DNA of 64,000 bases from an uncultured Gammaproteobacteria bacterium (GTDB lineage Bacteria; Pseudomonadota; Gammaproteobacteria; Steroidobacterales; Rariloculaceae): positions 1,822,718 to 1,886,717 of the forward strand of contig CAWFPH010000003.1 of NCBI GenBank assembly GCA_963817615.1, in the 5' to 3' direction. Below are positions 27,644 through 40,715 of the stretch, in pieces. Position numbers and translations under genes: made by a program. Position 1 is the first letter of the stretch. Each line of letters starts with the position of its first letter. The notes under the pieces are model-generated. The model was not told where the DNA came from, ran no database searches, and saw only the letters and a program-made list of their open reading frames with translations.

Positions 27644-28625
27644 TTACTCGGAGACGAGCGATGAGGCGATCGTGCGGACGGTCTGCCGCGGCACCTCACC
27701 GATCGCGGTGACGGTATGCCCCCGCAGCGTGAGCGAGAATGCGTTAGTGCTCCCGAGGTTCGAGAAACCCTCGTTGACTTCCGTCTTGGTGTTGGGGTCC
27801 TCGATGAATACCGACACCGTGGCGAGGCCGTCGGAATACACGAGATGGTCGACCGGGTAATCGGACCCGGCGATCGAGCTCTGCGTCGCGACCGACAGCT
27901 TGAAGCCGCCGGGCACGGTCGCGGCGCGCCACGGGATCGCCGGCTCGCTGCCTTCGGACGCTTGCGCGGTCGTCGGCGGCTTCAGCAACGTGAATCCTTT
28001 GGTGTCGATGGTCGGATCCAGCGCCGAGGCCGGAATCGACTTCGGCAAATCGATCTCCGTGAACAGTATCTGCTCGACGATGTTGCCTTCCTCGTCGATG
28101 AGCTGCGACTTGAGCGGCATGGCCGTCTCTTGGTCGAGCCACAGCATGTAGCCGTAGCGGAATTGATCCTTCGGCTTGATTTCGACCACTTGCGCGGGCC
28201 GATTCGCCACGCGCGCGCTCGAATGCAGCTTGATGTCGTAGTGCGGCTCGAGCTCCGATGTGTAGCTCGGTAGCGCGGACACGAGCGGACTCACGTCGGC
28301 GCGCACCTCGAGCAGCACGACGCGTTGATCGGGCAGGATGCACTGCACCTGATCGTCCTGGCGGATGATCTCGCGCCCGACACCGTCCATAGACACGATT
28401 CGCTCACCGCTCTTGCCGTTCTCGTTGCGGTGAATGATGTGCAGCGTCTCGGCGGTGCCGCCGAGCAAGTGCACGAAGGTTCCTTGATAGTTCAGCTCGT
28501 CGACCGCTTTATTCATGCGATCGAGCCACGAGCGCGCCTCCTCGGCCGACGCGTCGAACGTGCCGAGCGCGAGTAGCAGCAGCGAGCGACTGATGACGGC
28601 GCGGCTCGGTAGTGTCAATGTCATT
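27644..28625 (-). CDS. rseB: Sigma-E regulatory protein RseB/MucB
   Basis: Real start at ATG 28625 (4-nt overlap with the rseA stop). [53 protein letters not shown]... This is the typical MucB/RseB N-terminus. Confidence 0.85.
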
Positions 28626-29301
28626 GCGCCGGCGCTTCGAGTTCTTCGGGGCGTGGCGGCAATGGCGGTGCCAGCTCTTCGCCGGGGCCGACGACCTCCG
28701 CGGCGCCGACGACGTTCGAGTGAACCGACGTGCGGCTCAATCCCGAGGTGTATTCGCCATGATGCACGAGATAGTTCGTCAGCCGAATCTGCGGTGCAAC
28801 GGTCGGCGCATCGGAGACGTCCTGCGGCACCGTGTAGCTCGCCGGCTCGGTCCACTGGCGCGCCGCCGGCGGCGGCGAAGCATTGAATGCGGTGGTCGGC
28901 GCGGCCGCGCCGCCGGCGCCGTCGTTGACCTCGCGCAAGCCGACGATTGCGACGACCGCCACCGTGGCGGCGATGCCGAATCCGGCGACCGGGCGCAGAT
29001 AGCGGCTCTGCCAGCGCAGCGGCGCGCGCTGCGGTACCGGCACATTCGGCAACGCGGCGGCGGCCGGATGGGCGGGCGCGGCCGGCGCGCCGTCGAGCGC
29101 GCTCGCGATGCGTCGGCGCAGCACGCCGTGATCGGGACGGAGCAGCTCATTGCGCAGCGCCGCGCCGATCAGCGCATAGCGCTGCGCCTGGTTACGGGAG
29201 TCGGTGTCGCGCTCGAAGCGCCGGACCAACAGCGCGCACTCTTGTTCGGACAATTCGTCGTCGATGAAAGCCGAGATTTGATCGTTGATCTGTTCAGTCA
29301 T
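28621..29301 (-). CDS. rseA: Anti-sigma-E factor RseA/MucA
   Basis: MTEQINDQISAFIDDELSEQECALLVRRF... (the sigma-E binding N-domain pattern), followed by a single central TM (LRPVAGFGIAATVAVVAIVGL) and a periplasmic C-terminus. Confidence 0.8.
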   Translation of the reverse strand: MTEQINDQISAFIDDELSEQECALLVRRFERDTDSRNQAQRYALIGAALRNELLRPDHGVLRRRIASALDGAPAAPAHPAAAALPNVPVPQRAPLRWQSRYLRPVAGFGIAATVAVVAIVGLREVNDGAGGAAAPTTAFNASPPPAARQWTEPASYTVPQDVSDAPTVAPQIRLTNYLVHHGEYTSGLSRTSVHSNVVGAAEVVGPGEELAPPLPPRPEELEAPAQ

Positions 29302-29328
29302 GCGTGCAATGCCCGTCGCCGTGAACGG

Positions 29329-29949
29329 TTATAGAAGCGGTGCGATTTCCTTGTCGATGGCTTCGCGCGCCCGAAAGATTCGCGAACGAACCGTCCCCAC
29401 CGGGCACTCCATCGTCTCGGCAATCTCTTCGTAGCTCATGCCTTCGATTTCACGAAGCAGGATGGCCGTTCGCAGCTCCTCGGGCAAGCCTCGAATAGCG
29501 CGATTGATCGCTTCCTGAATCTCGTCGGACTGCGCGAACCCCTCGGGCGTATCGAGATCGCGCAGGTCGTTCAGCACTTCCGCTTGCTCGGGATCTTGAA
29601 CGTCGAGATTGTAATGCTGCGGCCGGCGGCCGATGGCAACGAGATGATTCTTCGCCGTGTTGATCGCAATGCGGTACAGCCAGGTATAGAACGCGCTGTC
29701 GCCGCGGAAGGAGGGAGCTGCGCGATAGGCCTTCAAGAATGCTTCCTGCGCCACGTCGAGCGCTTCGGACTGGTCTCGAACGTACCTCATGATGAGCTTC
29801 AGGATCTTGTGCTGGTACTTGATGACCAACAAGTCGAACGCCGACCTGTCGCCTTGCTGCACACGTCGGACGAGCGCGAGGTCGGAGGCACCGCTGCCTG
29901 AAGGGTGTCTTTCCGCTTGCTCTGTCAAACGTTGTTCGGTAGACCGCAT
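29329..29949 (-). CDS. rpoE: RNA polymerase sigma-E (ECF) factor RpoE/AlgU
   Basis: ...LVRRVQQGDRSAFDLLVIKYQHKILKLIMRYV...YTWLYRIAINTAKNHL...EGMSYEEIAETMECPVGTVRSRIFRAREAI... The start could instead be the TTG at 29928 (see findings). Confidence 0.95.
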   Translation of the reverse strand: MRSTEQRLTEQAERHPSGSGASDLALVRRVQQGDRSAFDLLVIKYQHKILKLIMRYVRDQSEALDVAQEAFLKAYRAAPSFRGDSAFYTWLYRIAINTAKNHLVAIGRRPQHYNLDVQDPEQAEVLNDLRDLDTPEGFAQSDEIQEAINRAIRGLPEELRTAILLREIEGMSYEEIAETMECPVGTVRSRIFRAREAIDKEIAPLL

Positions 29950-29966
29950 GCCGCACCGAAAAGTTC
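29939..29966 (-). promoter_or_regulatory. Sigma-E-type promoter motif (GAACTT-N17-TCTAC)
   Basis: The minus strand reads GAACTT (29966-29961), a 17-nt spacer, then TCTAC (29943-29939). This resembles the autoregulated rpoE/algU promoter pattern GAACTT-N16/17-TCTGA. It overlaps the ATG at 29949, so the call is tentative. Confidence 0.3.
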
Positions 29967-30072
29967 GCCCCGACCCATTACGTTTCCACCAAATTGACTG
30001 TGCCGGCGAATCGGATCAAGACTGATTCTAACGCAGATTGCGCGCGGCATTCGGGTCGCAGCTCCTCAAGAT

Positions 30073-30507
30073 TCATGAGCCGCGTCGCAATCGCGCCTGC
30101 AGCGCGGACCAAACGGCTGGTTTCACTTGGCACGATAGCAGAATGACCTCGAGCGCGCCGTGGGGCCCGCGCAACACCAAGCGAACCCAGAGGGACGTAT
30201 GGCGAGTACCTCGAACCAGCTCGAGCGACTCCGGCGCCCACTCGGGGACCGACCAGCGGCCGTCCGTGTTCCACACGAGCCGCCGCGGCGCACCGCGCGG
30301 CCGGCGTACGATCGCGTGCGCGACCAACACGCCGCCGGCGAGCGCCTTCGCCAGCGGCGGCGCGGCGACGGTTGCAACGGCGGCGAGCAGCACGACGTGC
30401 AGCGCAGCCCACCACGCAGCCAGCCAATGCGTCGGACGCACGTCAAGGGCGATGGGCGCCTCGGATCCGGTCGATGAGCGCGGCGAGAGCGGGGACGTCC
30501 GGTGCAT
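30073..30507 (-). CDS. YgfX (CptA)-like inner-membrane protein
   Basis: In the frame of ORF 30073..30630: ...THWLAAWWAALHVVLLAAVATVAAPPLAKALAGGVLVAHAIV... (two TM helices) then ...WSVPEW...TSLWVRLVLRG... Located directly after sdhE, as in E. coli sdhE-ygfX. The start is uncertain; ATG 30507 overlaps sdhE by 65 nt. Confidence 0.55.
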   Translation of the reverse strand: MHRTSPLSPRSSTGSEAPIALDVRPTHWLAAWWAALHVVLLAAVATVAAPPLAKALAGGVLVAHAIVRRPRGAPRRLVWNTDGRWSVPEWAPESLELVRGTRHTSLWVRLVLRGPHGALEVILLSCQVKPAVWSALQARLRRGS

Positions 30508-30697
30508 TGCGCCCGGTAAGGTACGCGAACAGCTCGGGATCCGGCAGGGCGAGAATCGCCTCGAAATGCGCGAGATCTTCGTTCGTGAGCGTCGCGGCCT
30601 CGCGCGCGATGAACGCTTGCAGCACCGCATCGAGCTCGCGCATGCCGCGCCGTGCGCGCCACCCCAGCCTCGCGAGCCGCTCCTTTCGTTCGGTCAT
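30443..30697 (-). CDS. sdhE: FAD assembly factor SdhE (SDHAF2 family)
   Basis: Trimmed to ATG 30697: MTERKERLARLGWRARRGMRELDAVLQAFIARE...FEAILALPDPELFAYLTG... Contains the conserved RGxxE motif region of SdhE/YgfY. Confidence 0.85.
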   Translation of the reverse strand: MTERKERLARLGWRARRGMRELDAVLQAFIAREAATLTNEDLAHFEAILALPDPELFAYLTGRNAPDVPALAALIDRIRGAHRP

Positions 30698-30774
30698 CGC
30701 CGGCGCGACGGAAGCTCGGGGCGCATTGCAGGACGAGCGCCCGGCAATGCTGCGACGCCGACACGTGAGCACGG

Positions 30775-31557
30775 TCAGAAGCGGCGCTCGGCGATCATTT
30801 TTTTGATTTCGGCGATGGCCTTGCCGGGGTTCAAGTCCTTCGGGCAGGCCTGCGTGCAGTTCAGGATCGTGTGGCAGCGATAGAGCCGAAACGCATCGTC
30901 GAGCTGATCGAGCCGCTCGCCCGTGGTCTCGTCGCGGCTATCGACGATCCACCGATACGCCTGCAGCAGCGCGGCGGGACCGAGGAAGCGTTCGGGGTTC
31001 CACCAATAGCTCGGGCAGGACGTCGAACAGCACGCGCAGAGGATGCAGGCCGACGGCGTGTTGATCTTCTCCTGATCCTCCTTCGACTGCAGCCGCTCGC
31101 GATCGGGCGGCGGCGGCGTGTGCGACTCGAGCCACGGCTTCACGGCCGCGTATTGCGCATAGAAGTTCGTGAGATCGCAGACGAGATCCTTGACGACCGG
31201 CAGGCTCGGCAACGGATAGATCTTCACGGTGCCCGAGACGTCCTCGATCGGCTTGAGGCAGGCGAGCGCGTTCGTGCCGTCGATGTTCATCGCGCACGAG
31301 CCGCAGATGCCCTCGCGGCATGACCGGCGAAACGTGAGCGTGGGATCGATCTCGTTTTTGATCTTGATCAGCGCGTCGAGCACCATCGGCGCGCACTGAT
31401 CGAGATCGATGCTGTAGGTGTCCACACGCGGGTTGTCGCCGCGGGTCGGGTCGTAGCGGTAGATCGCGAATTCCTTGACCCTCTTGGCGCCCGCGGCGCC
31501 GTCGTGCCGCTTGCCGGCCTTCACTCTGGAGTTCGCGGGGAGAAGAAACTGCGCCAT
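30775..31557 (-). CDS. sdhB: Succinate dehydrogenase iron-sulfur subunit
   Basis: Three Cys clusters: [31 protein letters not shown] and [13 protein letters not shown]. Confidence 0.97.
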
Positions 31558-31602
31558 CGTGGCTCCTTACGATTTACTACAGCCGCGCCGCCGTGGCGGC
31601 GC

Positions 31603-33390
31603 TCAATAGGTGCGCGCTTTCGGCGGGATTGCAGCGACTTCGTCGGTCAGCGTCTGCATCTGCACCGGTCGATAATCGAAACGCACGTTGCCGTTCGCAT
31701 CGACCCAGCACAGCGTGTGCTTCATCCAGTTGTCGTCGTCGCGATCCGGATAATCCTCGCGCGCTTGCGCGCCCCGGCTCTCGGTGCGGTTCAGCGCCGA
31801 CTTGATCGTGCCCATCGCCTGCAGCAGCAGGTTGTCGAGCTCCAACGTCTCGACCAAATCCGTGTTCCAAATCAACGTGCGGTCGCTGACACCGACGTCG
31901 CCGAAGCCCGCGAATACCTGCTCGAGCTGATCGATGCCTTCCTGCAGCGACTGACCCGTGCGGAACACGGCCGCGTGGCTCTGCATCACGCGCTGCATCT
32001 TGAGCCGCAGCGCGGCGGTCGGCGTGCCGCCCTTCGCGTTGCGCAGCCGGTCGAGCCGCGCGACGGCCTCGTCTCCCGCGCCCCGGTCGAAGGCCCGCAA
32101 CCGCGCGCCGCTCTCGAGCACCTCGCCGCACCGCAGCGCGGCTGCGCGGCCGAACACCACGAGGTCGATCAGCGAGTTCGAGCCGAGCCGGTTCGCGCCG
32201 TGCACGGACACGCACGCCGCCTCGCCGACGGCCATGAGACCCGGCACGACGCGCTCGTTGCCCGCCGCGTCTTTCGCGAGCACCTCGCCGTGGTAGTTGG
32301 TCGGCACGCCGCCCATGTTGTAGTGCACGGTCGGCAACACCGGGATCGGCGCCTTCATCACGTCGACGCCCGCGAAGATCTTGGCCGTTTCGGCGATGCC
32401 GGGCAGCCGCTCCTCGATCACGTCGCGGCCGAGGTGCTCGAGGTGCAGATGCACGTGGTCCTTGTGCGGTCCGACGCCGCGCCCCTCGCGGATCTCGATC
32501 GTCATCGAGCGGCTCACGACGTCGCGCGACGCCAAATCCTTCGCGTTCGGCGCGTAGCGCTCCATGAAGCGCTCGCCCTCGGAGTTCGTGAGGTAGCCGC
32601 CCTCGCCGCGCGAGCCCTCGGTGATCAGCATGCCGGCGCCGTACACGCCGGTCGGATGGAACTGCACGAACTCGAGGTCTTGCAGCGGCAAGCCCGCGCG
32701 CAGCACCATCGCGTTGCCGTCGCCCGTGCAGATGTGCGCGGACGTGCAGGAGAAGTAGGCGCGACCGTACCCGCCCGTCGCCAAGATCACCATCTGCGAG
32801 CGGAACCGGTGCAAGCGCCCCGTCGCCATGTCGAGCGCGACCACGCCGCGGCATTCGCCGTCCTGCATGATCAGATCGATCGCAAAATATTCGATGAAGA
32901 ATTCGGCCGAGTGGCGCAGCGATTGCTGATAGAGCGTGTGCAGCATCGCATGGCCCGTGCGGTCCGCCGCCGCACACGTGCGCTGCGCGGTGCCCTTGCC
33001 GAATTCCGTGGTCATGCCGCCGAACGGCCGCTGATAGATGCGTCCGTCCTCCGTCCGCGAGAACGGCACGCCGTAGTGCTCGAGCTCGATCACGGACGCA
33101 GGCGCTTCCTTGCACATGTAGGCGATCGCGTCCTGGTCGCCGAGCCAGTCCGAGCCCTTGACCGTGTCGTACATGTGCCAACGCCAGTCGTCCGGCCCCA
33201 TGTTGCCGAGCGCCGCGCTGATGCCGCCTTGCGCGGCTACCGTATGGCTGCGCGTCGGAAAAACCTTGCTCAAGCAGGCCGTCGTGAGCCCTTGCTCGGC
33301 AAGACCGAGCGTCGCGCGCAATCCCGCGCCGCCGGCACCGACCACCACCACGTCGTAGGAATGCTCGATGAATTCGTACTCTTTGCTCAT
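31603..33390 (-). CDS. sdhA: Succinate dehydrogenase flavoprotein subunit
   Basis: Real start at ATG 33390 inside the 873-aa track [33 protein letters not shown]...[14 protein letters not shown] (FAD-histidyl site)...HPTG...RLGSNSL... 595 aa. Confidence 0.97.
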
Positions 33391-33773
33391 GCAGCGGATC
33401 CGAACGCAATCTTCAAGATCGCGAACACGCCCGCGATCGACAATGCAAAGTGCGCGAACGCCGATGCCATCAGCGCGAGCACCTTGAGCCCGTTGGCGTG
33501 CACGTAGTCCTCGATGACGACCCGCAGACCGAGAAACGAGTGATAGCCGGCGGTGACCACGAGCAAAATCGCGAGAATGCTCGTGAGCGGCCGCCGTAGC
33601 CACTCGGTGACGCTCAGGTACGAGAGATCGGGCAACGCGAGCAACGCGAGCGCGAACCAAAGCCCGAGCGGCACGAGCGCAACGGCCGTGAGCCGCTGCA
33701 GCCACCAATGCTCGACGGCGCCGCCCGCCGTGCCGAGGCCGAGCACCCGATTCAACGGAGTGACGAGATTCAT
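33387..33773 (-). CDS. sdhD: Succinate dehydrogenase hydrophobic membrane anchor subunit
   Basis: 128 aa with 3 TM helices. Located between sdhC and sdhA, with a 4-nt overlap with the sdhA start. Confidence 0.9.
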
Positions 33774-33782
33774 GACACGCCC

Positions 33783-34163
33783 CTAGAGGATCGTCGCGGC
33801 CGCGAACGCCGCCGTCGCGACGATCGCAAAGCCGACCACCATCCAACCGCTCGAGACGATGCGCGCGCGGCCGAACCCGAGACCGACGTCCCAGAACAGA
33901 TGCCGCACGCCGTTCGCGAGATGCAGGAAGAAGCAGAAGATCCAGACGACGAGCGGCAGCTTGAACCATTGCGCGCCGAACACCTGCTGCGCCGTGCGAT
34001 AGGCGTCGGCGCCGCTCGCGATCGCAATGAGCCACGCCGCGAGCGCAACCGCGCCGAGCGACAACAGCAGGCCGGTGATGCGATGCAGGCTCGACAGCAA
34101 CATCGTGATGCGCCATCGATAGATCTGCAGGTGCGGCGACAGCGGCCGGGGGTCGGCGTGCAT
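33783..34163 (-). CDS. sdhC: Succinate dehydrogenase cytochrome b556 subunit
   Basis: [31 protein letters not shown]... is the canonical SdhC N-terminus. 126 aa. Confidence 0.9.
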
Positions 34164-34224
34164 CGTTCGTTATTCTCCTCGACTGAATCGGCGAGCGCCC
34201 GGTCCCGATCGAACCGCGCGGCAC

Positions 34225-34431
34225 TCAGAAATCAATGCATCGGCCCGCCCGCTCCCAGTCACCGTAGCGGGTCGGCTCCGGACCCTTCGGCCCGCCGATC
34301 TCACGGGGCTGCGGGGGGTCTTCGGCGGCCGCGTTCGACGCGTCCGCGACGGGCGCATCGACGCGGTTCGAATGGGCGCTTCGAGGCAGCCGGTCCTCGC
34401 GGACCCGCTCATGTGCACGCTCGCCGGGCAT
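34225..34431 (-). CDS. DUF1674 protein (SDHAF4-like small protein, 68 aa)
   Basis: Real ORF at the 3' end of track ORF 34225..34971, from ATG 34431. The C-terminus ...EIGGPKGPEPTRYGDWERAGRCIDF matches the DUF1674 signature as I recall it. Confidence 0.75.
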   Translation of the reverse strand: MPGERAHERVREDRLPRSAHSNRVDAPVADASNAAAEDPPQPREIGGPKGPEPTRYGDWERAGRCIDF

Positions 34432-34507
34432 GCTGCAAATTTTGCCAGAAACGGCGCAGCCGCGCACTACGCGGAGCGTTGGGGCGAGGCACCGCCGGCT
34501 TCGCGCG

Positions 34508-35692
34508 TCATCCGGGCCGCTCGCCGACGTACTTCGCTCGCGGTCGAATAATCGCAGCGTGGGCGTACTGCTCGATCGCGTGCGCAATCCAACCGATCGT
34601 CCGGCCGATCGCGAACAGCGTGAGCGCGGCATCCCCCGGCAATTTGAGGGCACGGCCAAGCGCGACCAGCCCGAAGTCGATGGTCGGCGCCTCGCCGAGC
34701 ACGCTCTCGGCTGCCGCCGCGAAGGCATGCGCGAAGCGCGTCTCCGCCGTGTCGGGGAGCGCTTCGAGCAGCATTGCGGCGCGCGGGTCGCCGTTCGCGT
34801 ACAGCGGGTGCCCGAACCCCTCGATGGGCTCGCCGCGGCGCAGCCGGTCGGCGAGCGCGCCGCGCAAATCCGTGCTCTTGCGCAGCGCATCGCAGAGCGC
34901 CGCGACTCTCGCGGTCGCGCCGCCGTGCTTCGTGCCCTCGAGCGCGGCGAGCCCTCCGAGCACGACTGCATACGGAGACGACCCCGCGGACGCGATGCAG
35001 CGAGCGGTGAACGCGGACACGTTGAGCTCGTGGTCCGCGCACAGAATCAGCGCCGAGCGCAGCAGCGGCGCGCGCCGCGGCACGCCCCACGCGGCTGCAA
35101 GCGCGGCGTCGATCGTCGCGCCGCGCGCGGCGCGACCCGCCGCGACGCCCGTCATGAGCTCGAGAACGCGCCAACCCGTCTGCGCGACGGCTCGCGGGCG
35201 AAGGTCGTACGCGAGCGCATCGTGCGCGGCCGCGATCGGTAAAAGCGACTGGACGCGGCTCATGAACGGCAAGCCGGCAGTGCCCCGCGCGAGCGCGGGC
35301 AAGCGCGCGCTCGGCGTGAATACGCCCGCGTCTGCGGCGCCCGTCCAAAGCAGCCCCGCCACCTGCGCGACCGAATGGCTGCGAGCGAGCTCCGCGACGT
35401 CGCGGCCTCGATAGTAGAGGCGGCCGTCCACGATCAGCGTGATGGCCGACTCCAAGATGGGCAATCCCCAGCGCAGCGACTGCTCGGCCGCCTTGTCCGG
35501 ATCTCGCCGGCGCTCCGCCCGGAGCTTCAACCGCTCGATGTCCTCGCGGGAATAGCGCCGCCGGCGTGCGCTACCCGGCACGGTCTCCGAACGCACTCGG
35601 CCCCGGCTCACGTACGCGTAGAGCGTAGCGGCGCTCACGCCGAGCGCGGCCGTCGCATCGTGTGCATCCAGCCAATCCGACTTGCGCTTCAT
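34508..35692 (-). CDS. Citrate-synthase-family protein with an N-terminal helix-turn-helix (excisionase/MerR-type) domain
   Basis: The N-terminus LDAHDATAALGVSAATLYAYVSRGRVRS is HTH-like. The remainder aligns by eye with citrate synthases: ...LEGTKHGGATA..., ...EGFGHPLYANGDPRA..., ...PTIDFGLVAL...AIGRTIGWIAHAIEQ... Confidence 0.8.
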   Translation of the reverse strand: MKRKSDWLDAHDATAALGVSAATLYAYVSRGRVRSETVPGSARRRRYSREDIERLKLRAERRRDPDKAAEQSLRWGLPILESAITLIVDGRLYYRGRDVAELARSHSVAQVAGLLWTGAADAGVFTPSARLPALARGTAGLPFMSRVQSLLPIAAAHDALAYDLRPRAVAQTGWRVLELMTGVAAGRAARGATIDAALAAAWGVPRRAPLLRSALILCADHELNVSAFTARCIASAGSSPYAVVLGGLAALEGTKHGGATARVAALCDALRKSTDLRGALADRLRRGEPIEGFGHPLYANGDPRAAMLLEALPDTAETRFAHAFAAAAESVLGEAPTIDFGLVALGRALKLPGDAALTLFAIGRTIGWIAHAIEQYAHAAIIRPRAKYVGERPG

Positions 35693-35721
35693 ATTATATT
35701 GACGAACGGATCAATATTGAC
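35693..35721. promoter_or_regulatory. AT-rich operator-like repeats in the divergent promoter region
   Basis: Perfect 10-bp palindrome TCAATATTGA (35711-35720). ATATTGAC occurs twice as a direct repeat (35696-35703 and 35714-35721, 18 bp apart). The region is strikingly AT-rich for this genome. Function is inferred only. Confidence 0.35.
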
Positions 35722-35752
35722 CGTATGGCAACCTCAGTCTAATGTGACCGCC

Positions 35753-36835
35753 ATGAGCACTCAACCCAAAGTTGATGCAAGCAGCGGCCTCGAGGGCGTG
35801 GTCGCCGCGGCCACGCGCCTCAGCATGGTCGACGGCGAGCGCGGCGAGCTGATCGTCGCCGGAGAGCGCCTTGCGCAGCTGGCCGACCGGGCGTTCGAGG
35901 ACGTCGTCGCGCTGTTATGGGAAGCGGCCGGCTTTCGCGGCGAGCGCGTGCGTGCGCTGCCCGTGCCGCGCTCGACGCTCGACCTGCTCGACTCGGCCGC
36001 GCGGCGCCGCGTCGCGCCGATGGATGCGCTGCGCATGGGAGCCGCCTCGCTCGTGGCGGACGACGACGGTGCGGCTGCCGCATTGCTCGTCGGCGCGTTC
36101 CCGACGATCACCGCGGCTTACGCGAGGTTGCTGCGGGGCGAGCAGCCGCTCGAGCCGCGTTCCGACTTGGGGCTCGCGGCGAATTATCTGTTCATGCTGA
36201 CCGGCGTCGAGCCGCATCCGGAGCTCGTTCGCGGGCTCGAGACTTACCTCGACACGGTGGCCGACCACGGCTTGAACGCGTCGACGTTCGCCGCACGGGT
36301 CATCGTTTCGACGGGCGCTGACTTCGTGTCGGCCGTCGTCGGGGCGATCGGTGCGCTCAAGGGGCCGCTGCACGGCGGTGCGCCGGGACCTGCGCTCGAC
36401 ATGGTGTTCGAGATCGGCGATGCGGCACGGGCCGAGGCGGTTCTGCGGGGCAAGATCGAGCGCGGCGAGCGCCTCATGGGATTCGGCCATCGCGTGTACA
36501 AGGTGCGCGATCCGCGTGCCGATGTGCTCGCCGCCGCGGCGGCCCGCATGTTCGCGCGCGCGGGCGACTCGCGGCTCTACGAGCTCGCGCGGGCGGTCGA
36601 GGCGACGGCGCTCGAGCTGCTGGAGGAATACAAACCCGGCCGCCGCCTCAAGACCAACGTCGAGTTCTACACGGCGTTGCTGCTGCACGGCCTCGACCTC
36701 GAGGTGCCGTTCTTCACGCCGACCTTCGCAATCGGCCGGATCGCGGGCTGGACCGCGCACTGCTTCGAGCAGCGCGCGGCGGCCCGCTTGATTCGGCCGC
36801 AGAGCATCTACGTAGGGCGACCGCCCGCCGCCTGA
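35753..36835 (+). CDS. Citrate synthase family enzyme, short (~360 aa) type
   Basis: Real start at ATG 35753 inside track ORF 35375..36835: MSTQPKVDASSGLEGVVAAATRLSMVDGERGELIVAG...LKGPLHGGAPG...MGFGHRVYKVRDPRA...KTNVEFYTALLL...IGRIAGWTAHCFEQ... Confidence 0.85.
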   Translation: MSTQPKVDASSGLEGVVAAATRLSMVDGERGELIVAGERLAQLADRAFEDVVALLWEAAGFRGERVRALPVPRSTLDLLDSAARRRVAPMDALRMGAASLVADDDGAAAALLVGAFPTITAAYARLLRGEQPLEPRSDLGLAANYLFMLTGVEPHPELVRGLETYLDTVADHGLNASTFAARVIVSTGADFVSAVVGAIGALKGPLHGGAPGPALDMVFEIGDAARAEAVLRGKIERGERLMGFGHRVYKVRDPRADVLAAAAARMFARAGDSRLYELARAVEATALELLEEYKPGRRLKTNVEFYTALLLHGLDLEVPFFTPTFAIGRIAGWTAHCFEQRAAARLIRPQSIYVGRPPAA

Positions 36836-36887
36836 GCGCGGTGGGACTACGCGGCCGGCTCGCACGCGGCCCTATACTGGCGCCTCG

Positions 36888-37781
36888 ATGACGCCCCGCT
36901 ACTCAATGCTGCCGAGCCGCGCCTGCCTCGAAGTGCACGGTGCCGACGCCGCCGCGTTCCTGGACGGCCAGCTCGCCGTCTCGATCGCGTCGCTCGAACC
37001 CGACCGTGCGCCGCTCGCCGCCTGGCTCGACGCCCGCGGGCGCGTGCGCGCGCTGCTGCGCGTCGTGCGGCTGCCGGATCGCTGGCTGCTCGCGACCGAG
37101 GCGGCCGCCGTCGAGTCGATCGTGCGAAAGCTCAGAATGTTCGTGCTGCGGGCGGCAGTGACGATCGCGCCGGCGGAGGATGTCGGCGTCGCGGCGCTGG
37201 TCGACGCCGACGATGCATGGCTCGCGGCGCACGGTCTGCCGCAGAGCGGCCCGGCCGATGCGCTCGCCGCAGCGGGCGAGCTGCGTATGGTGGCGGTGGG
37301 CCCGGGCCTGCAGCTGGTCATCGGGAAGCAAGCCGCGATCGACGCATGGACGCCCGCGCTGCCACGAGCGCCCGGCGAGCTCGCGGCGCTCGCGGAGATC
37401 CGCCTCGGCATCCCGGCCGTGCCGGCGGCGATTGCGGAGCGTTACGTCGCGCAGATGCTCAATCTCGACCGGCTCGGCGCCGTCGCTTTCGACAAGGGTT
37501 GCTATCCCGGCCAAGAGGTCGTCGCGCGCGTGCAGCACTTGGGCTCCGTCAAACGCCGCCTGCGCCGCTTTGCGATCGACGCACCACCGCCGGCCGTCGG
37601 CGCCGAGGTGCTCGCGAGCGATCGGCAGGCCGTCGGCGAGGTGGTGCGCGCGGCGGCCGTGCCCGACGCCGGCAGCGAGCTGCTCGCGGTCATCGAGCGC
37701 TCGGCGCTGGCGGACGCGATCACGGTCGACGGCTCGGCGCTGCGACCCTTGCCGCTGCCCTACGCGCTACCGGAGCCTTGA
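36888..37781 (+). CDS. ygfZ: Folate-binding Fe-S cluster repair/tRNA-modification protein YgfZ (GcvT-like)
   Basis: ...LEVHGADAAAFLDGQL... and the signature ...FDKGCYPGQEVVARVQHLGSVKRRL... Confidence 0.85.
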   Translation: MTPRYSMLPSRACLEVHGADAAAFLDGQLAVSIASLEPDRAPLAAWLDARGRVRALLRVVRLPDRWLLATEAAAVESIVRKLRMFVLRAAVTIAPAEDVGVAALVDADDAWLAAHGLPQSGPADALAAAGELRMVAVGPGLQLVIGKQAAIDAWTPALPRAPGELAALAEIRLGIPAVPAAIAERYVAQMLNLDRLGAVAFDKGCYPGQEVVARVQHLGSVKRRLRRFAIDAPPPAVGAEVLASDRQAVGEVVRAAAVPDAGSELLAVIERSALADAITVDGSALRPLPLPYALPEP

Positions 37782-37804
37782 GCGGCGCGCACGCTCAGGT
37801 ACGG

Positions 37805-38032
37805 CTAGGCAGGCGCGCGGCGAGTGTTGCTCCAAATCAGCTCGGCGACGCCGAGCAGCGCGAGGATTGCGCCGTAGAGCGTCCAGTGCAGGTCGTTGAC
37901 CATGAAGCCCTGCAGAATCGCGGCGGGCCCGACGTTCAAGCCCTGCATCATCCAAACCGCGCCGACCACGACCATGAGCAAGCCGATGAGGCTGCTCACG
38001 ATCCGCATCAGAACATCGAATGCTCGTCGCAT
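37805..38032 (-). CDS. Small hypothetical membrane protein (75 aa, 2 TM)
   Basis: ATG start. MRRAFDVLMRIVSSLIGLLMVVVGAVWMMQGL...LHWTLYGAILALLGVAELIW... Its hydrophobic composition is unlike the spurious GC frames. No family recognised. Confidence 0.45.
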   Translation of the reverse strand: MRRAFDVLMRIVSSLIGLLMVVVGAVWMMQGLNVGPAAILQGFMVNDLHWTLYGAILALLGVAELIWSNTRRAPA

Positions 38033-38120
38033 CGCCGACGGACCTCGAGCGGCGCGCGTTGCCGCGCGGAGACGGAATGGTACGTCGAACGGCGCGCGGC
38101 TGCAGCGGCAACCCTCGACG

Positions 38121-39614
38121 CTACCGCTCCGGCTTGAGCTGCGGGAACAGCAGCACGTCGCGAATCGACGCGGCGTCGGCGAGCAGCATCGCGAGCCGGT
38201 CGATGCCGAGACCGAGGCCCGCAGTCGGCGGCATTCCGTACTCGAGCGCGCGAATGTAGTCCTCGTCGTAGAACATCGCCTCCTCGTCGCCCTGCGCCTT
38301 GGCGTCGGCCTGGGCGCGAAACCGCGCCGCCTGGTCCTCGGGGTCGTTGAGCTCGGAGAAACCGTTCGCGAGCTCGCGCCCTCCTACGAACAGCTCGAAC
38401 CGATCGGCCACGAACGGATCGGCATCGTTGCACCGCGCAAGCGGCGACACTTCCGCCGGATACTGCGTGACGAAGGTCGGCGCACGCAGTGTAGTCTCGA
38501 CGGTCTTCTCGAACAGCTCGTACTGCAGCTTGCCGGCGCCGGAGCCCGCGTGCACGTGAATGCCGTGGCGCTCGCACTCGTTCGCGAGCGCCGCCCGATC
38601 GCGAATCTTGCCCCCGGCGAGCGCCGGGTTCGCTCGCTCGAGCGCCGCCTCCACGCTGATCTCGCCGAACGGCTCTCCCAGCTCGATGCGCTCGCCCTGG
38701 TAGTCGATGGCCGTGTCGCCGAGCACGACTTGCGCGGCGTTGCGCACGAGATTTTCGGTGAGCGTCATCACGTCGCGGTAGCCGGCGTACGCTTGGTACA
38801 GCTCGAGCATCGTGAACTCCGGGTTGTGACGCGTCGACAGGCCCTCGTTACGAAATACGCGGCCGAGCTCGTAGACACGCTCGAACCCGCCGACGACGAG
38901 CCGCTTCAAGTAGAGCTCGGGCGCGATGCGCAGATACAGATCGAGATCGAGCGCGTTGTGATGCGTGACGAACGGACGCGCGGTCGCGCCGCCCGGTATC
39001 GGCTGCATGATCGGAGTCTCGACCTCGGTGAAGTCGAGCGCGTCGAGATAGCTGCGCACGAACCGCGTCAGCGCGCTGCGCTTGCGGAAGATCTCGCGCG
39101 TCTCCTCGCTCATCACGAGATCGACGTAGCGTTGCCGCAGCTTGAACTCCTGGTCCGTGATGCCGTGCCACTTCTCGGGCAGCGGCCGCAGCGACTTCAC
39201 CAGCAGCCTGAGCTCGCTTACGTCGACCGAGAGCTCGCCCGTTTTGGTCTTGACGAGCTCCCCGCGCGCGGCGACGACGTCGCCCAAATCCCACTTCTTG
39301 AGCTCGGAATACGGCGCCTCGCCGAGCCGATCGCGGCGCACGAACAGTTGGATTTGCCCCGAGCGGTCCTGGATCTTCATGAACGTGATGGCGCCCGTGA
39401 CGCGCTTCGCGAGCATGCGGCCGGCAACGGCAACCGCGACGCGCTCGGCTGCAAGCGAATCCGCGGCATGAGCGCCGTAAGCGGCATGCAGCTCGCCCGC
39501 GAGCGAATCGCGCTTGAAGTCGTTCGGGAACGCGATGCCGCCCTCGCGCAGCTTCGCGAGCTTCGCGCGGCGCTCGGCGATCAGCCGATTTTCGGATTCG
39601 TCATGCTCGGCCAT
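38121..39614 (-). CDS. lysS: Lysine--tRNA ligase (class II)
   Basis: Track ORF 38121..39623 begins at a TTG. ATG 39614 is preferred: [26 protein letters not shown]... Class II motifs are present (...FRNEG..., ...GLGIDRL...). Sits in a prfB-lysS operon arrangement. Confidence 0.95.
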
Positions 39615-39619
39615 CGGCG

Positions 39620-40715
39620 TCAAAGTCCTTGCTTCAAGCTTTCCTGGAGAAAGTCGTCGAGATCACCGTCGAGCACGGCCTGCGGCCGGCCGCTTTCGAG
39701 GCCGGTGCGCAAATCCTTCACGCGCGACTGGTCGAGCACGTAGGAGCGGATCTGATTGCCCCAGCCGATATCCGCTTTATTCTCCTCCACGATCTGCGCC
39801 TGCTCGCGCCGCTTCTGCTGCTCGAGCTCGTACAGCTTCGCGCGCATCTGGCTCAGCGCCATCGCGCGATTCTTGTGCTGCGAACGCTCGTTCTGGCACT
39901 GCACGACGATGCCGGTCGGCATGTGTGTCATGCGAATCGCCGATTCGGTCTTGTTCACGTGCTGGCCGCCCGCGCCGCTCGCGCGAAACACGTCGACGCG
40001 CAGATCGGCCGGATTGAGCTCGATCTCGATGTCGTCGTCGATCTCCGGCGACACGAACACCGCCGCGAACGACGTGTGGCGGCGATGCCCCGAATCGAAC
40101 GGCGACTTGCGCACGAGCCGGTGCACACCCGTCTCGGTTCTAAGCCACCCGTAGGCGTACTCGCCGCGCACGTGCAGCGATGCGCTCTTGATGCCCGCGA
40201 CCTCGCCGGCCGACTCCTCGAGCACGTCGACCGCGAAGCCGTGCGCCTCGCACCAGCGTAGGTACATACGCAGCAGCATCGCGGCCCAGTCCTGCGCCTC
40301 CGTCCCGCCCGAGCCGGCCTGGACGTCGAGGAACGCATGATGGGCGTCCATCTCGCCCGCGAACATTCGGCGGAACTCCAGCCGCTCGAGCTCCTTGGTG
40401 ACGCTGCCGAGCTGACCGATCAGGTCGGTGAGCGTAGCCGCGTCCTCCGCCTCCACCGCGAGCTCGTGGAGCTCGCCTGCTTCGGTAAGGCTCTTGTCGA
40501 CGGTTCCGAGCGTCTCGACCACGGTCTCGAGGCCGGCCCGCTCGCGGCCTAACGCCTGCGCACGCTCCGCGTCGACCCAAACGTTCGGATCTTCGAGCTC
40601 GCGCTTGACTTCCTCGAGCCGCTCGCGCTTCGCGTCATAGTCAAAGATACCTCCTGAGAGCGGTGCTACGCTCCTTGAGGTCGTCGATCGCTGCGCCGAT
40701 TTGATTGACTTCCAT
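39620..40715 (-). CDS. prfB: Peptide chain release factor 2, requiring a programmed +1 frameshift
   Basis: Frame 0 runs from ATG 40715: [24 protein letters not shown], then an in-frame TGA (40643-40641). The +1 frame continues [22 protein letters not shown]...SPFDS...[15 protein letters not shown] (SPF and GGQ motifs) to the stop at 39620. Confidence 0.95.
40640..40655 (-). promoter_or_regulatory. RF2 programmed +1 frameshift site
   Basis: The minus strand reads AGG AGG TAT CTT TGA C. An SD-like AGGAGG lies 3 nt upstream of the slippery CTT-TGA-C, as in the E. coli prfB autoregulatory site. Confidence 0.9.

Follow-up and report, generated by a model that had tools for sequence, protein, structure and literature searches.

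What does a protein do that carries a DNA-binding helix-turn-helix (HTH) in front of a citrate synthase (CS) fold, and whose gene lies back to back with that of a second citrate synthase? This question is raised by a 394-residue fusion protein encoded in a 64,000-nucleotide stretch of DNA (the window) from an uncultured gammaproteobacterium of the family Rariloculaceae (contig CAWFPH010000003.1 of assembly GCA_963817615.1). A preliminary description of the locus had proposed a ligand-sensing one-component regulator sitting at a gltA/sdh regulatory node. The regulator remains the best reading of the predicted HTH, the CS scaffold and a conserved motif next to the gene; the node does not survive comparison with related loci. 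We consider it likely, from sequence and modelled structure, that the fusion is a one-component transcription factor of citrate-synthesis genes, with a CS paralogue as its sensor, and not a housekeeping citrate synthase. What is conserved across relatives is a unit of three parts: the fusion gene, a tripartite motif and a divergent partner gene. No published description of the fusion was found within the incomplete literature that we covered, and the preliminary description had known of none. The family thus appears to be undescribed, and is of a known kind, that of one-component regulators with enzyme-derived sensors.

The DNA-binding head and the motif beside its gene

The excisionase/MerR-like HTH that had been read into the first 60 residues is found there by profile search, at residues 7-57. 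Pfam matches both HTH_17 (residues 7-55, 29 bits against a cut-off of 27) and MerR_1 (PF13411, residues 13-57, 29.8 bits against 21.6), and the topology of an AlphaFold2 monomer model of the whole protein (mean predicted local distance difference test, pLDDT, of 85.8) agrees with them (Table 1). Modelled alone, the head reaches a pLDDT of 82; the linker that follows it is of lower confidence and includes a helix at residues 65-74. A Foldseek search with residues 1-78 returned the Xis protein of mycobacteriophage Pukovnik (4j2n) as best match, followed by RacA-DNA (5i44), BldC-DNA (6ama, 6amk), SoxR and CarH, with HiNmlR as a further structural neighbour. Match probabilities were 0.99-1.0 and TM-scores to the closest structures (BldC, Xis, RacA) about 0.7-0.8, normalised to the target; E-values were weak because the domain is small. 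Each of these nearest structures is a DNA-binding winged helix from the MerR superfamily. Within the head, the stretch TLYAYVSR is invariant and the flanking A22 and G31 are at least 90% conserved in an alignment of 66 sequences; we propose this stretch as the recognition-helix segment. The coiled-coil dimerisation helix and C-terminal effector region of MerR-type proteins were not encountered, only helices 49-62 and 65-74 following the wing, and the fusion is therefore not a strict MerR-family regulator. Pfam found no LysR domain in the fusion, its matches being HTH_17/MerR_1 and Citrate_synt, and structure searches found no solved structure that joins such an HTH head to a CS fold.

The fusion gene and the divergent CS gene (hereafter CS2) are separated by exactly 60 bp (35693-35752). 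The preliminary description had placed the end of its feature at 35752, which includes this intergenic region; the gene proper ends at 35692. In GC content the gap stands at about 0.42-0.47 and the window at 0.64-0.69, as expected from the AT-rich divergent gap described earlier. It contains the perfect palindrome TCAATATTGA at 35711-35720 and two copies of ATATTGAC, at 35696 and 35714. This palindrome and the repeat 18 bp away, both of which had been noticed before, turn out to be half-sites 1 and 2 and half-site 3 of a larger pattern (Table 1). Half-sites 2 and 3 form an 18-bp dyad, ATTGAT-N6-(A/G)TCAAT, with centres 12 bp apart, as is usual for dimeric regulators. A 10-bp palindrome alone is unremarkable in an AT-rich stretch of 60 bp; the tripartite pattern is remarkable, TCAA-N2-TTGA-N8-TCAA occurring once in the window (35699-35720) against 0.01 expected from shuffles. 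No further credible site was found in the window, either for the tripartite pattern with up to one mismatch or for the 12-bp palindrome with up to two, and an Rfam scan of 28000-40000 gave no structured RNA.

How far is this arrangement conserved? Searches with the full protein returned thousands of relatives; most of the best 120 listed carry HTH_17 and Citrate_synt together, and among these the two-domain proteins are named only "citrate synthase (family protein)". The N-terminal 100 residues as query gave 938 clusters at 50% identity (E<=1e-10). We compared 160 related loci in two independent sets, 80 from species-representative genomes and 80 from metagenomes, the latter seeded with distant members; protein identity is 42-69% to the query of each set, which was the window protein for the genome set and the fusion protein of locus L077 for the metagenome set. 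The loci come from more than ten phyla, the genome set comprising Acidobacteriota, Gamma-, Alpha- and Betaproteobacteria, Chloroflexota, Gemmatimonadota, Actinomycetota, Deinococcota, Binatia, Latescibacterota and others. Motif counts rest on the 153 loci that could be evaluated. The preliminary description had made its proposal hang on conservation of the palindrome upstream of orthologous fusions, and the palindrome is present upstream of the fusion in 148 of the 153; the full tripartite motif is present in 142, with the consensus tGTCAAT-a-TTGAT-t-nnnn-AATCAAT-a-T.

The orientation of the motif relative to the fusion is always identical, and the gap from TTGA to the third TCAA measures 8 nt in 73 of 75 instances. 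Bases that were not part of the search pattern are conserved as well (G-1, 97%; T+10, 98%; A+17, 97%), and the half-sites reach an information content of about 2 bits where gap and flanks have about 0, as expected for protein-contacted sites in otherwise diverged DNA. Elsewhere in these loci, over 1.13 Mb, the palindrome matches 11 times, against about 17 expected by chance. Since the proteins are only 42-69% identical to their query, the motif has been kept by selection and not through recent transfer. Two Chloroflexota loci have two motif copies each in a longer intergenic region, approximately 153 and 198-210 nt upstream of the fusion start in L038 and approximately 91 and 176 nt upstream in L065.

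Divergent partners and predicted promoters

CS2, the second citrate synthase gene that had been reported as divergent from the fusion, is indeed one (Citrate_synt, 4.8e-98). Its product passes NF009005 with 352.6 bits (cut-off, 332), and the solved structures nearest to it are those of B. subtilis citrate synthase 1, CitA (2c6x), and then M. tuberculosis CitA; it is thus of citA type, and the earlier label gltA does not apply. Identity reaches 81%, to the partner in another uncultured gammaproteobacterial genome (L007). A citA-type CS is the divergent partner in 126 of the 160 loci and, in an all-against-all clustering of open reading frames (ORFs) from the 80 genome loci, the CS2-type partner is the sole conserved neighbour of the fusion.

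The partner is not always a citrate synthase. In eight loci (L061, L076, L077 from Calidithermus chliarophilus DSM 9957, L087, L090, L091, L100 and L152) it is an HMGL-like enzyme of 440-460 residues, not of CS fold, whose relatives bear the automatically annotated names "citrate (Re)-synthase", "2-phosphinomethylmalate synthase" and "isopropylmalate/homocitrate/citramalate synthase". A search started from the HMGL-like enzyme led back to a divergent HTH_17+Citrate_synt gene with an intervening motif in both loci checked, one in the Deinococcus aetherius genome and one on contigs with a protein that NCBI lists under Thermosporothrix hazakensis. In a subclade of about 43% identity (L137, L141, L142, L151, L156), the divergent gene encodes a family III CoA-transferase of about 460 residues (for example, L142:3512-4897), and the gap before the third half-site is 9 nt rather than 8 nt. 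Thus, the motif tracks the fusion and not one type of partner. The changing partners, whose folds are unrelated, all presumably act on coenzyme A (CoA) thioesters and di- or tricarboxylates. In six Chloroflexota loci (L040, L047, L054, L066, L073, L074), a gene resembling pyridoxal phosphate-dependent threonine/serine dehydratases (for example, L074:4986-5963) stands between operator and fusion, which is there the second gene of a unit divergent from CS2.

This exchange of partners bears on whether the fusion acts through protein-protein contacts, forming mixed oligomers with the citA-type CS and modulating or tethering the enzyme, with DNA binding secondary. Both proteins have a CS fold, their genes are paired in 126 of 160 loci, and in citrate synthases, which are obligate dimers, the subunits contribute residues to each other's active sites, as with R351' of the Metallosphaera sedula enzyme (MsCS) (PMC6386500). 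However, fusion and motif are kept where the partner is an unrelated TIM-barrel, HMGL-like protein (at least eight loci and the two reached by starting from the HMGL-like enzyme) and where, in one subclade, it is a CoA-transferase; moreover, the CS paralogues share only 37% identity, in the C-terminal half alone. That the cassette is kept while the fold of the partner changes points to a transcriptional link and argues against an obligatory complex of two CS paralogues. We regard action mainly through such contacts as extremely unlikely.

Where would a bound protein lie relative to the promoters? Half-site 1, read on the reverse strand, is TTGACA in 94 of 144 motif instances and TTGACN in 135, and a TAnnnT hexamer follows at a 17-nt spacing in 62 of the 144 and at 16-18 nt in 89, against 0-3 instances at other offsets. 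In the window, this reading places the -35 box of a predicted sigma-70-type promoter for CS2, TTGACC, on half-site 1, with a 17-nt spacer and 7 nt from the -10 box to the ATG at 35753 (Table 1). The CS2 promoter matches 8 of 12 consensus positions and owes its support to the spacing statistics of the family alone; a generic promoter and terminator scan of 34100-36000 returned nothing over its thresholds, this promoter included. Half-site 1 thus overlaps the -35 box of the predicted partner promoter. With 7 nt between -10 box and ATG, the CS2 mRNA is predicted to be leaderless or nearly so. A recognisable Shine-Dalgarno sequence is missing in front of both divergent genes (35693-35698 on the reverse strand, 35746-35752 on the forward strand), and a perfect TATAAT abuts the ATG of the fusion; together these features point to leaderless transcripts for CS2 at least. 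On the fusion strand, six loci (L001-L004, L161, L163) show TTGACA, a 19-nt spacer that holds the palindrome, and TAGAAT or TATAAT; this MerR-like layout is confined to some lineages and is not seen in the window.

Could the motif then consist simply of back-to-back promoter elements, or be the site of another regulator, the fusion head doing something else? On the reverse strand, half-site 1 reads as a -35 box close to consensus and is followed by a well-spaced -10 box, and the 19-nt arrangement just described surrounds the palindrome on the fusion strand of some lineages. Promoter hexamers, however, are not kept 100% invariant with fixed 2-nt and 8-nt gaps over more than ten phyla; half-site 3 (AATCAAT, with A17 at 97%) does not serve as any promoter element; the motif goes with the fusion whatever the partner; and the TLYAYVSR segment of the head is invariant. 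Such an explanation is, in our judgement, very unlikely.

The citrate synthase fold: sensor or enzyme?

The remainder of the fusion is a CS-superfamily member by fold, in agreement with the full CS fold that had been claimed for it. Citrate_synt (PF00285) is matched at 1.3e-59 (202.5 bits, gathering score 27), residues 89-393 align to positions 25-352 of 366 in NF009005 (the PRK12350 citrate synthase model), Foldseek returns structures of PrpC and M. tuberculosis CitA at E values of about 1e-13, and the AlphaFold2 model places the CS N-terminal hairpin at residues 85-94. The three catalytic positions (His, His, Asp) recognised earlier correspond to H256, H295 and D339, which in alignments with solved citrate synthases fall on the catalytic residues. 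In MsCS, H214, H253 and D307 form the catalytic triad and R262, R332 and R351' bind citrate/oxaloacetate (PMC6386500). The corresponding residues of the fusion (H256, H295, D339, R304, R364 and R383) have identical spacings to these and are 97-100% conserved across the fusion family, and H221 is likewise invariant or nearly so.

Nevertheless, the fusion fails the curated enzyme models. It matches 21 NCBIfam models for citrate synthase, 2-methylcitrate synthase or citryl-CoA lyase and scores under the cut-off of every one (best, 145.3 bits against 421.3). After the second catalytic His, where G-F-G-H-R-V-Y-K is expected, the fusion family has H-P(59%)-L-Y-P(77%), that is, HP(L)Y(P/A), whereas the partner CS family keeps the motif intact as H-R(100%)-V-Y-K(77%). 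The lysine at +4 of HRVYK we take to be the equivalent of pig CS Arg324, which contacts the phosphates of CoA, the motif as a whole presumably serving in CoA binding. By BLAST, the fusion and CS2 align at 37% identity over the C-terminal half alone, the N-terminal half being unalignable. Citrate synthesis from oxaloacetate and acetyl-CoA by the fusion is, on this sequence evidence, doubtful. A separate observation concerns the partner: the citA-type family has Glu at the canonical position of the catalytic Asp (NVEFY, 100% of 68 sequences; E304 in the window), as does B. subtilis citrate synthase 1 (2c6x) in a HMMER alignment, while the fusion keeps Asp.

These data bear directly on a second possibility, which is that the fusion is a trigger enzyme: like PutA and BirA, it would bind DNA while still being active, here as a citrate synthase or a related acyl-CoA:oxoacid synthase, and operator occupancy would report turnover and not simply the binding of a ligand. 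It differs from the regulator proposed here only in catalytic activity. The complete CS fold, the retention of Asp at the catalytic base where the partner has Glu, and the near-invariance of the His-His-Asp triad and oxaloacetate arginines, despite the divergence of the proteins as a whole, speak for it. Against it stand the change from HRVYK to HP(L)Y(P/A), by which two basic residues are lost, the score far under every NCBIfam equivalog cut-off, the strong divergence of the N-terminal half of the CS domain, and the active paralogue next door, which would make a second enzyme redundant. On balance, we think a catalytically active fusion conceivable, if rather doubtful.

How would a regulator of this type work? 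In the mechanism that we propose, the Xis/BldC/MerR-type winged helix would bind the tripartite operator GTCAAT-a-TTGAT-N6-ATCAAT in the 60-bp gap, and the bound protein would cover the -35 box of the partner promoter and 20 bp upstream of it. Because half-site 1 is the -35 hexamer (TTGACN) of the partner, the bound protein would most likely repress it; the near-consensus quality of this -35 box also makes repression likelier than activation, and regulators of the family are probably repressors. The gap is so short that the bound protein, whose operator would also overlap the promoter region of the fusion, should affect the fusion's own gene as well. The CS-fold domain is presumably dimeric, since all citrate synthases are, and with its complete oxaloacetate/citrate pocket it may act as the sensor. 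Oxaloacetate binding shifts the small domain of CS (PMC6386500) and would therefore offer a ready-made switch, in which ligand binding and closure of the small domain would reposition the two HTH heads and alter operator occupancy. Oxaloacetate or citrate is the most likely ligand, because the pocket is fully conserved, and acetyl-CoA is less likely, because the basic HRVYK motif is lost. Judging from the comparison of loci, the conserved target would be the divergent partner gene and not sdh.

Several points weigh against this proposal. DNA binding, ligand and sign of regulation are all inferred, and an invariant His-His-Asp triad is equally expected of a still-active enzyme. Three loci (L033, L039, L099) yielded no motif, and in two others (L056, L108) one arm of the palindrome is mismatched. 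The motif may owe part of its conservation (TTGACA) to promoter function, and no convincing promoter for the fusion gene itself was identified in the window, where the TATAAT abuts the ATG. Finally, the three half-sites do not form a single simple dyad, half-sites 1 and 2 lie only 6 bp apart centre to centre, this layout leaves the stoichiometry ambiguous, and the monomer model is silent on whether the HTH heads of a dimer would reach the half-sites.

The sdh context and relation to known systems

Downstream of the fusion, and on the same strand, lie DUF1674, sdhC, sdhD, sdhA, sdhB, sdhE, a 149-residue ORF, rpoE and rseA (Table 1). The preliminary description had given this array as far as ygfX; Pfam supports DUF1674, sdhCDAB and sdhE, and the supposed ygfX has no match at E<=1. 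This arrangement suggested that the fusion regulates the sdh operon, and indeed it heads the array and no terminator is predicted in the 76-bp gap between the fusion and DUF1674, so that an autoregulated promoter could read through into sdh. However, searches by tblastn with SdhA/B/C/D, SdhE, DUF1674 and YgfZ gave no hit to any of these in the 160 loci; sdh lies within 5-6 kb of the fusion in 0 of them, the closest gammaproteobacterial relatives included, and a conserved fusion-sdh link was rejected. The window has a single operator, none being found upstream of DUF1674 or sdhC, and genes downstream of the fusion differ even among the closest relatives. The sdh context is thus peculiar to this genome, in which co-transcription of sdh with the fusion is possible; regulation of sdh from a combined gltA/sdh control point we consider unlikely.

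Some features of the window concern gene calling. The DUF1674 gene is buried in a longer, 248-residue ORF of the mechanical ORF list, and an 82-residue ORF at 34170-34418 that overlaps it is in the wrong frame. For sdhA, a 610-residue ORF in another frame was rejected. On the other side, downstream of a ygfZ-like gene, a 615-residue ORF (37896-39743, forward strand) has no Pfam or NCBIfam match; a 500-residue ORF of the opposite strand overlaps it, and it is for that reason possibly spurious.

Table 1 Coordinates of the fusion gene, the predicted operator and neighbouring features in the window
Feature	Position	Strand	Basis or remark
HTH-CS fusion gene, 394 aa, proposed one-component regulator	34508-35692	-	ORF, translation, Pfam, AlphaFold2
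Winged helix-turn-helix, residues 7-62	35507-35674	-	Pfam; AlphaFold2 topology beta-alpha-alpha-beta-beta-alpha, pLDDT 88-94
Citrate-synthase-fold domain, residues 76-394, proposed ligand sensor	34511-35467	-	NF009005, Foldseek, conserved residues
Predicted tripartite operator, GTCAAT-A-TTGAT-CCGTTC-GTCAAT-AT	35696-35721	-	Motif scan and family consensus
Half-sites 1 and 2, 12-bp palindrome GTCAATATTGAT, containing TCAATATTGA	35710-35721		Sequence
Half-site 3, GTCAAT	35698-35703	-	18-bp dyad with half-site 2; 18-bp direct repeat with half-site 1
Predicted sigma-70-type CS2 promoter, -35 TTGACC (35717-35722), -10 TAATGT (35740-35745)	35717-35745	+	Sequence and family spacing
Divergent citA-type citrate synthase CS2, 360 aa, proposed regulated target	35753-36835	+	Pfam, NF009005
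DUF1674 (PF07896, 1.2e-18), 68 aa	34225-34431	-	Pfam; between fusion gene and sdhC
sdhA	31603-33390	-	Pfam
149-aa ORF after sdhE (ygfX of the preliminary description)	29978-30427	-	No Pfam match even at E<=1
Extracytoplasmic function (ECF) sigma factor (rpoE)	29329-29949		After the 149-aa ORF
RseA-like anti-sigma factor (rseA)	28621-29301		After rpoE
ygfZ-like gene	36888-37781		Upstream of the 615-aa ORF

If the proposed role is correct, a dedicated and apparently ancient pair of regulator and operator controls entry into the tricarboxylic acid (TCA) cycle, and does so in phyla for which next to nothing is known of how central metabolism is regulated (Acidobacteriota, Chloroflexota, Gemmatimonadota, Binatia, Deinococcota). 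The 938 clusters span many soil and sediment phyla and are annotated as citrate synthase; if their members are regulators, reconstructions of the TCA cycle that count them as enzymes are wrong. A regulator shared between Si-type and presumed Re-citrate-synthase enzymes would also lend independent genomic support to a role of the poorly characterised HMGL-like proteins in citrate-like synthesis. On the practical side, biosensor design could profit from a compact protein of about 400 residues with a 26-bp operator and a possible response to oxaloacetate, citrate or acetyl-CoA, and the proposal is readily testable, the operator being precisely defined and cultured carriers available (Deinococcus aetherius, Calidithermus chliarophilus). 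More tentatively, the locus may represent a widespread, unrecognised family of metabolite-sensing regulators, in which a CS paralogue senses the substrate or product of citrate synthesis and whose cassette would have been rewired in evolution onto three unrelated folds, those of Si-type CitA, the Re-citrate-synthase-like HMGL enzymes and CoA-transferase III. In the strongest form of this idea the regulators would still be catalytic, and occupancy would report flux through an open/closed catalytic cycle and not the concentration of a metabolite; we consider this reading possible, with considerable doubt.

Which known systems does the fusion resemble? MocR/GabR regulators combine a GntR winged helix with a fold-type-I aminotransferase domain, control neighbouring and often divergent metabolic genes, and are often mis-annotated as enzymes. 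As in these, one polypeptide unites a DNA-binding head with a full enzyme-fold domain, here presumably dimeric and metabolite-binding, and a conserved cis-element adjoins the fusion gene, lying where a functionally related target has its predicted promoter. The modules differ, however, an Xis/MerR-type HTH_17 and a citrate synthase taking the place of GntR and aminotransferase, with no sequence relationship between the two systems. The enzymes PutA and BirA and the CitA protein of Caulobacter, which controls the cell cycle independently of catalysis, likewise use the scaffold of a central-metabolism enzyme for regulation. But PutA and BirA are active, and Caulobacter CitA has no dedicated DNA-binding domain, whereas here an HTH is fused and catalysis is doubtful.

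With the MerR family, the fusion shares its MerR_1 head and the structural neighbours SoxR, CarH and HiNmlR; in some lineages, a palindrome lies inside the 19-nt spacer of a putative promoter directed toward the fusion, which recalls a MerR-type promoter. Unlike MerR proteins, it lacks the long C-terminal coiled-coil helix and the effector pocket, both roles presumably being supplied by the CS fold, and the predicted partner promoter, whose -35 box the operator overlaps, has a spacer of the usual 17 nt. BldC, Xis and RacA, the closest structures, bind DNA at AT-rich repeats or palindromes through several heads acting independently, a mode that would fit an operator of three half-sites; they are, however, stand-alone domains of 50-70 residues without a ligand-binding module. 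The closest parallel in genetic arrangement is that of B. subtilis, in which, as Jin and Sonenshein are said to have described in 1994, the minor CS gene citA is controlled by a divergent dedicated regulator, CitR. Here too, the presumed regulator is divergent from a citA-type CS, in 126 of 160 loci, and CS2 is closest to the B. subtilis structure 2c6x; but CitR is of LysR type, and its place is taken here by a paralogue of citrate synthase itself, bearing an HTH_17 head.

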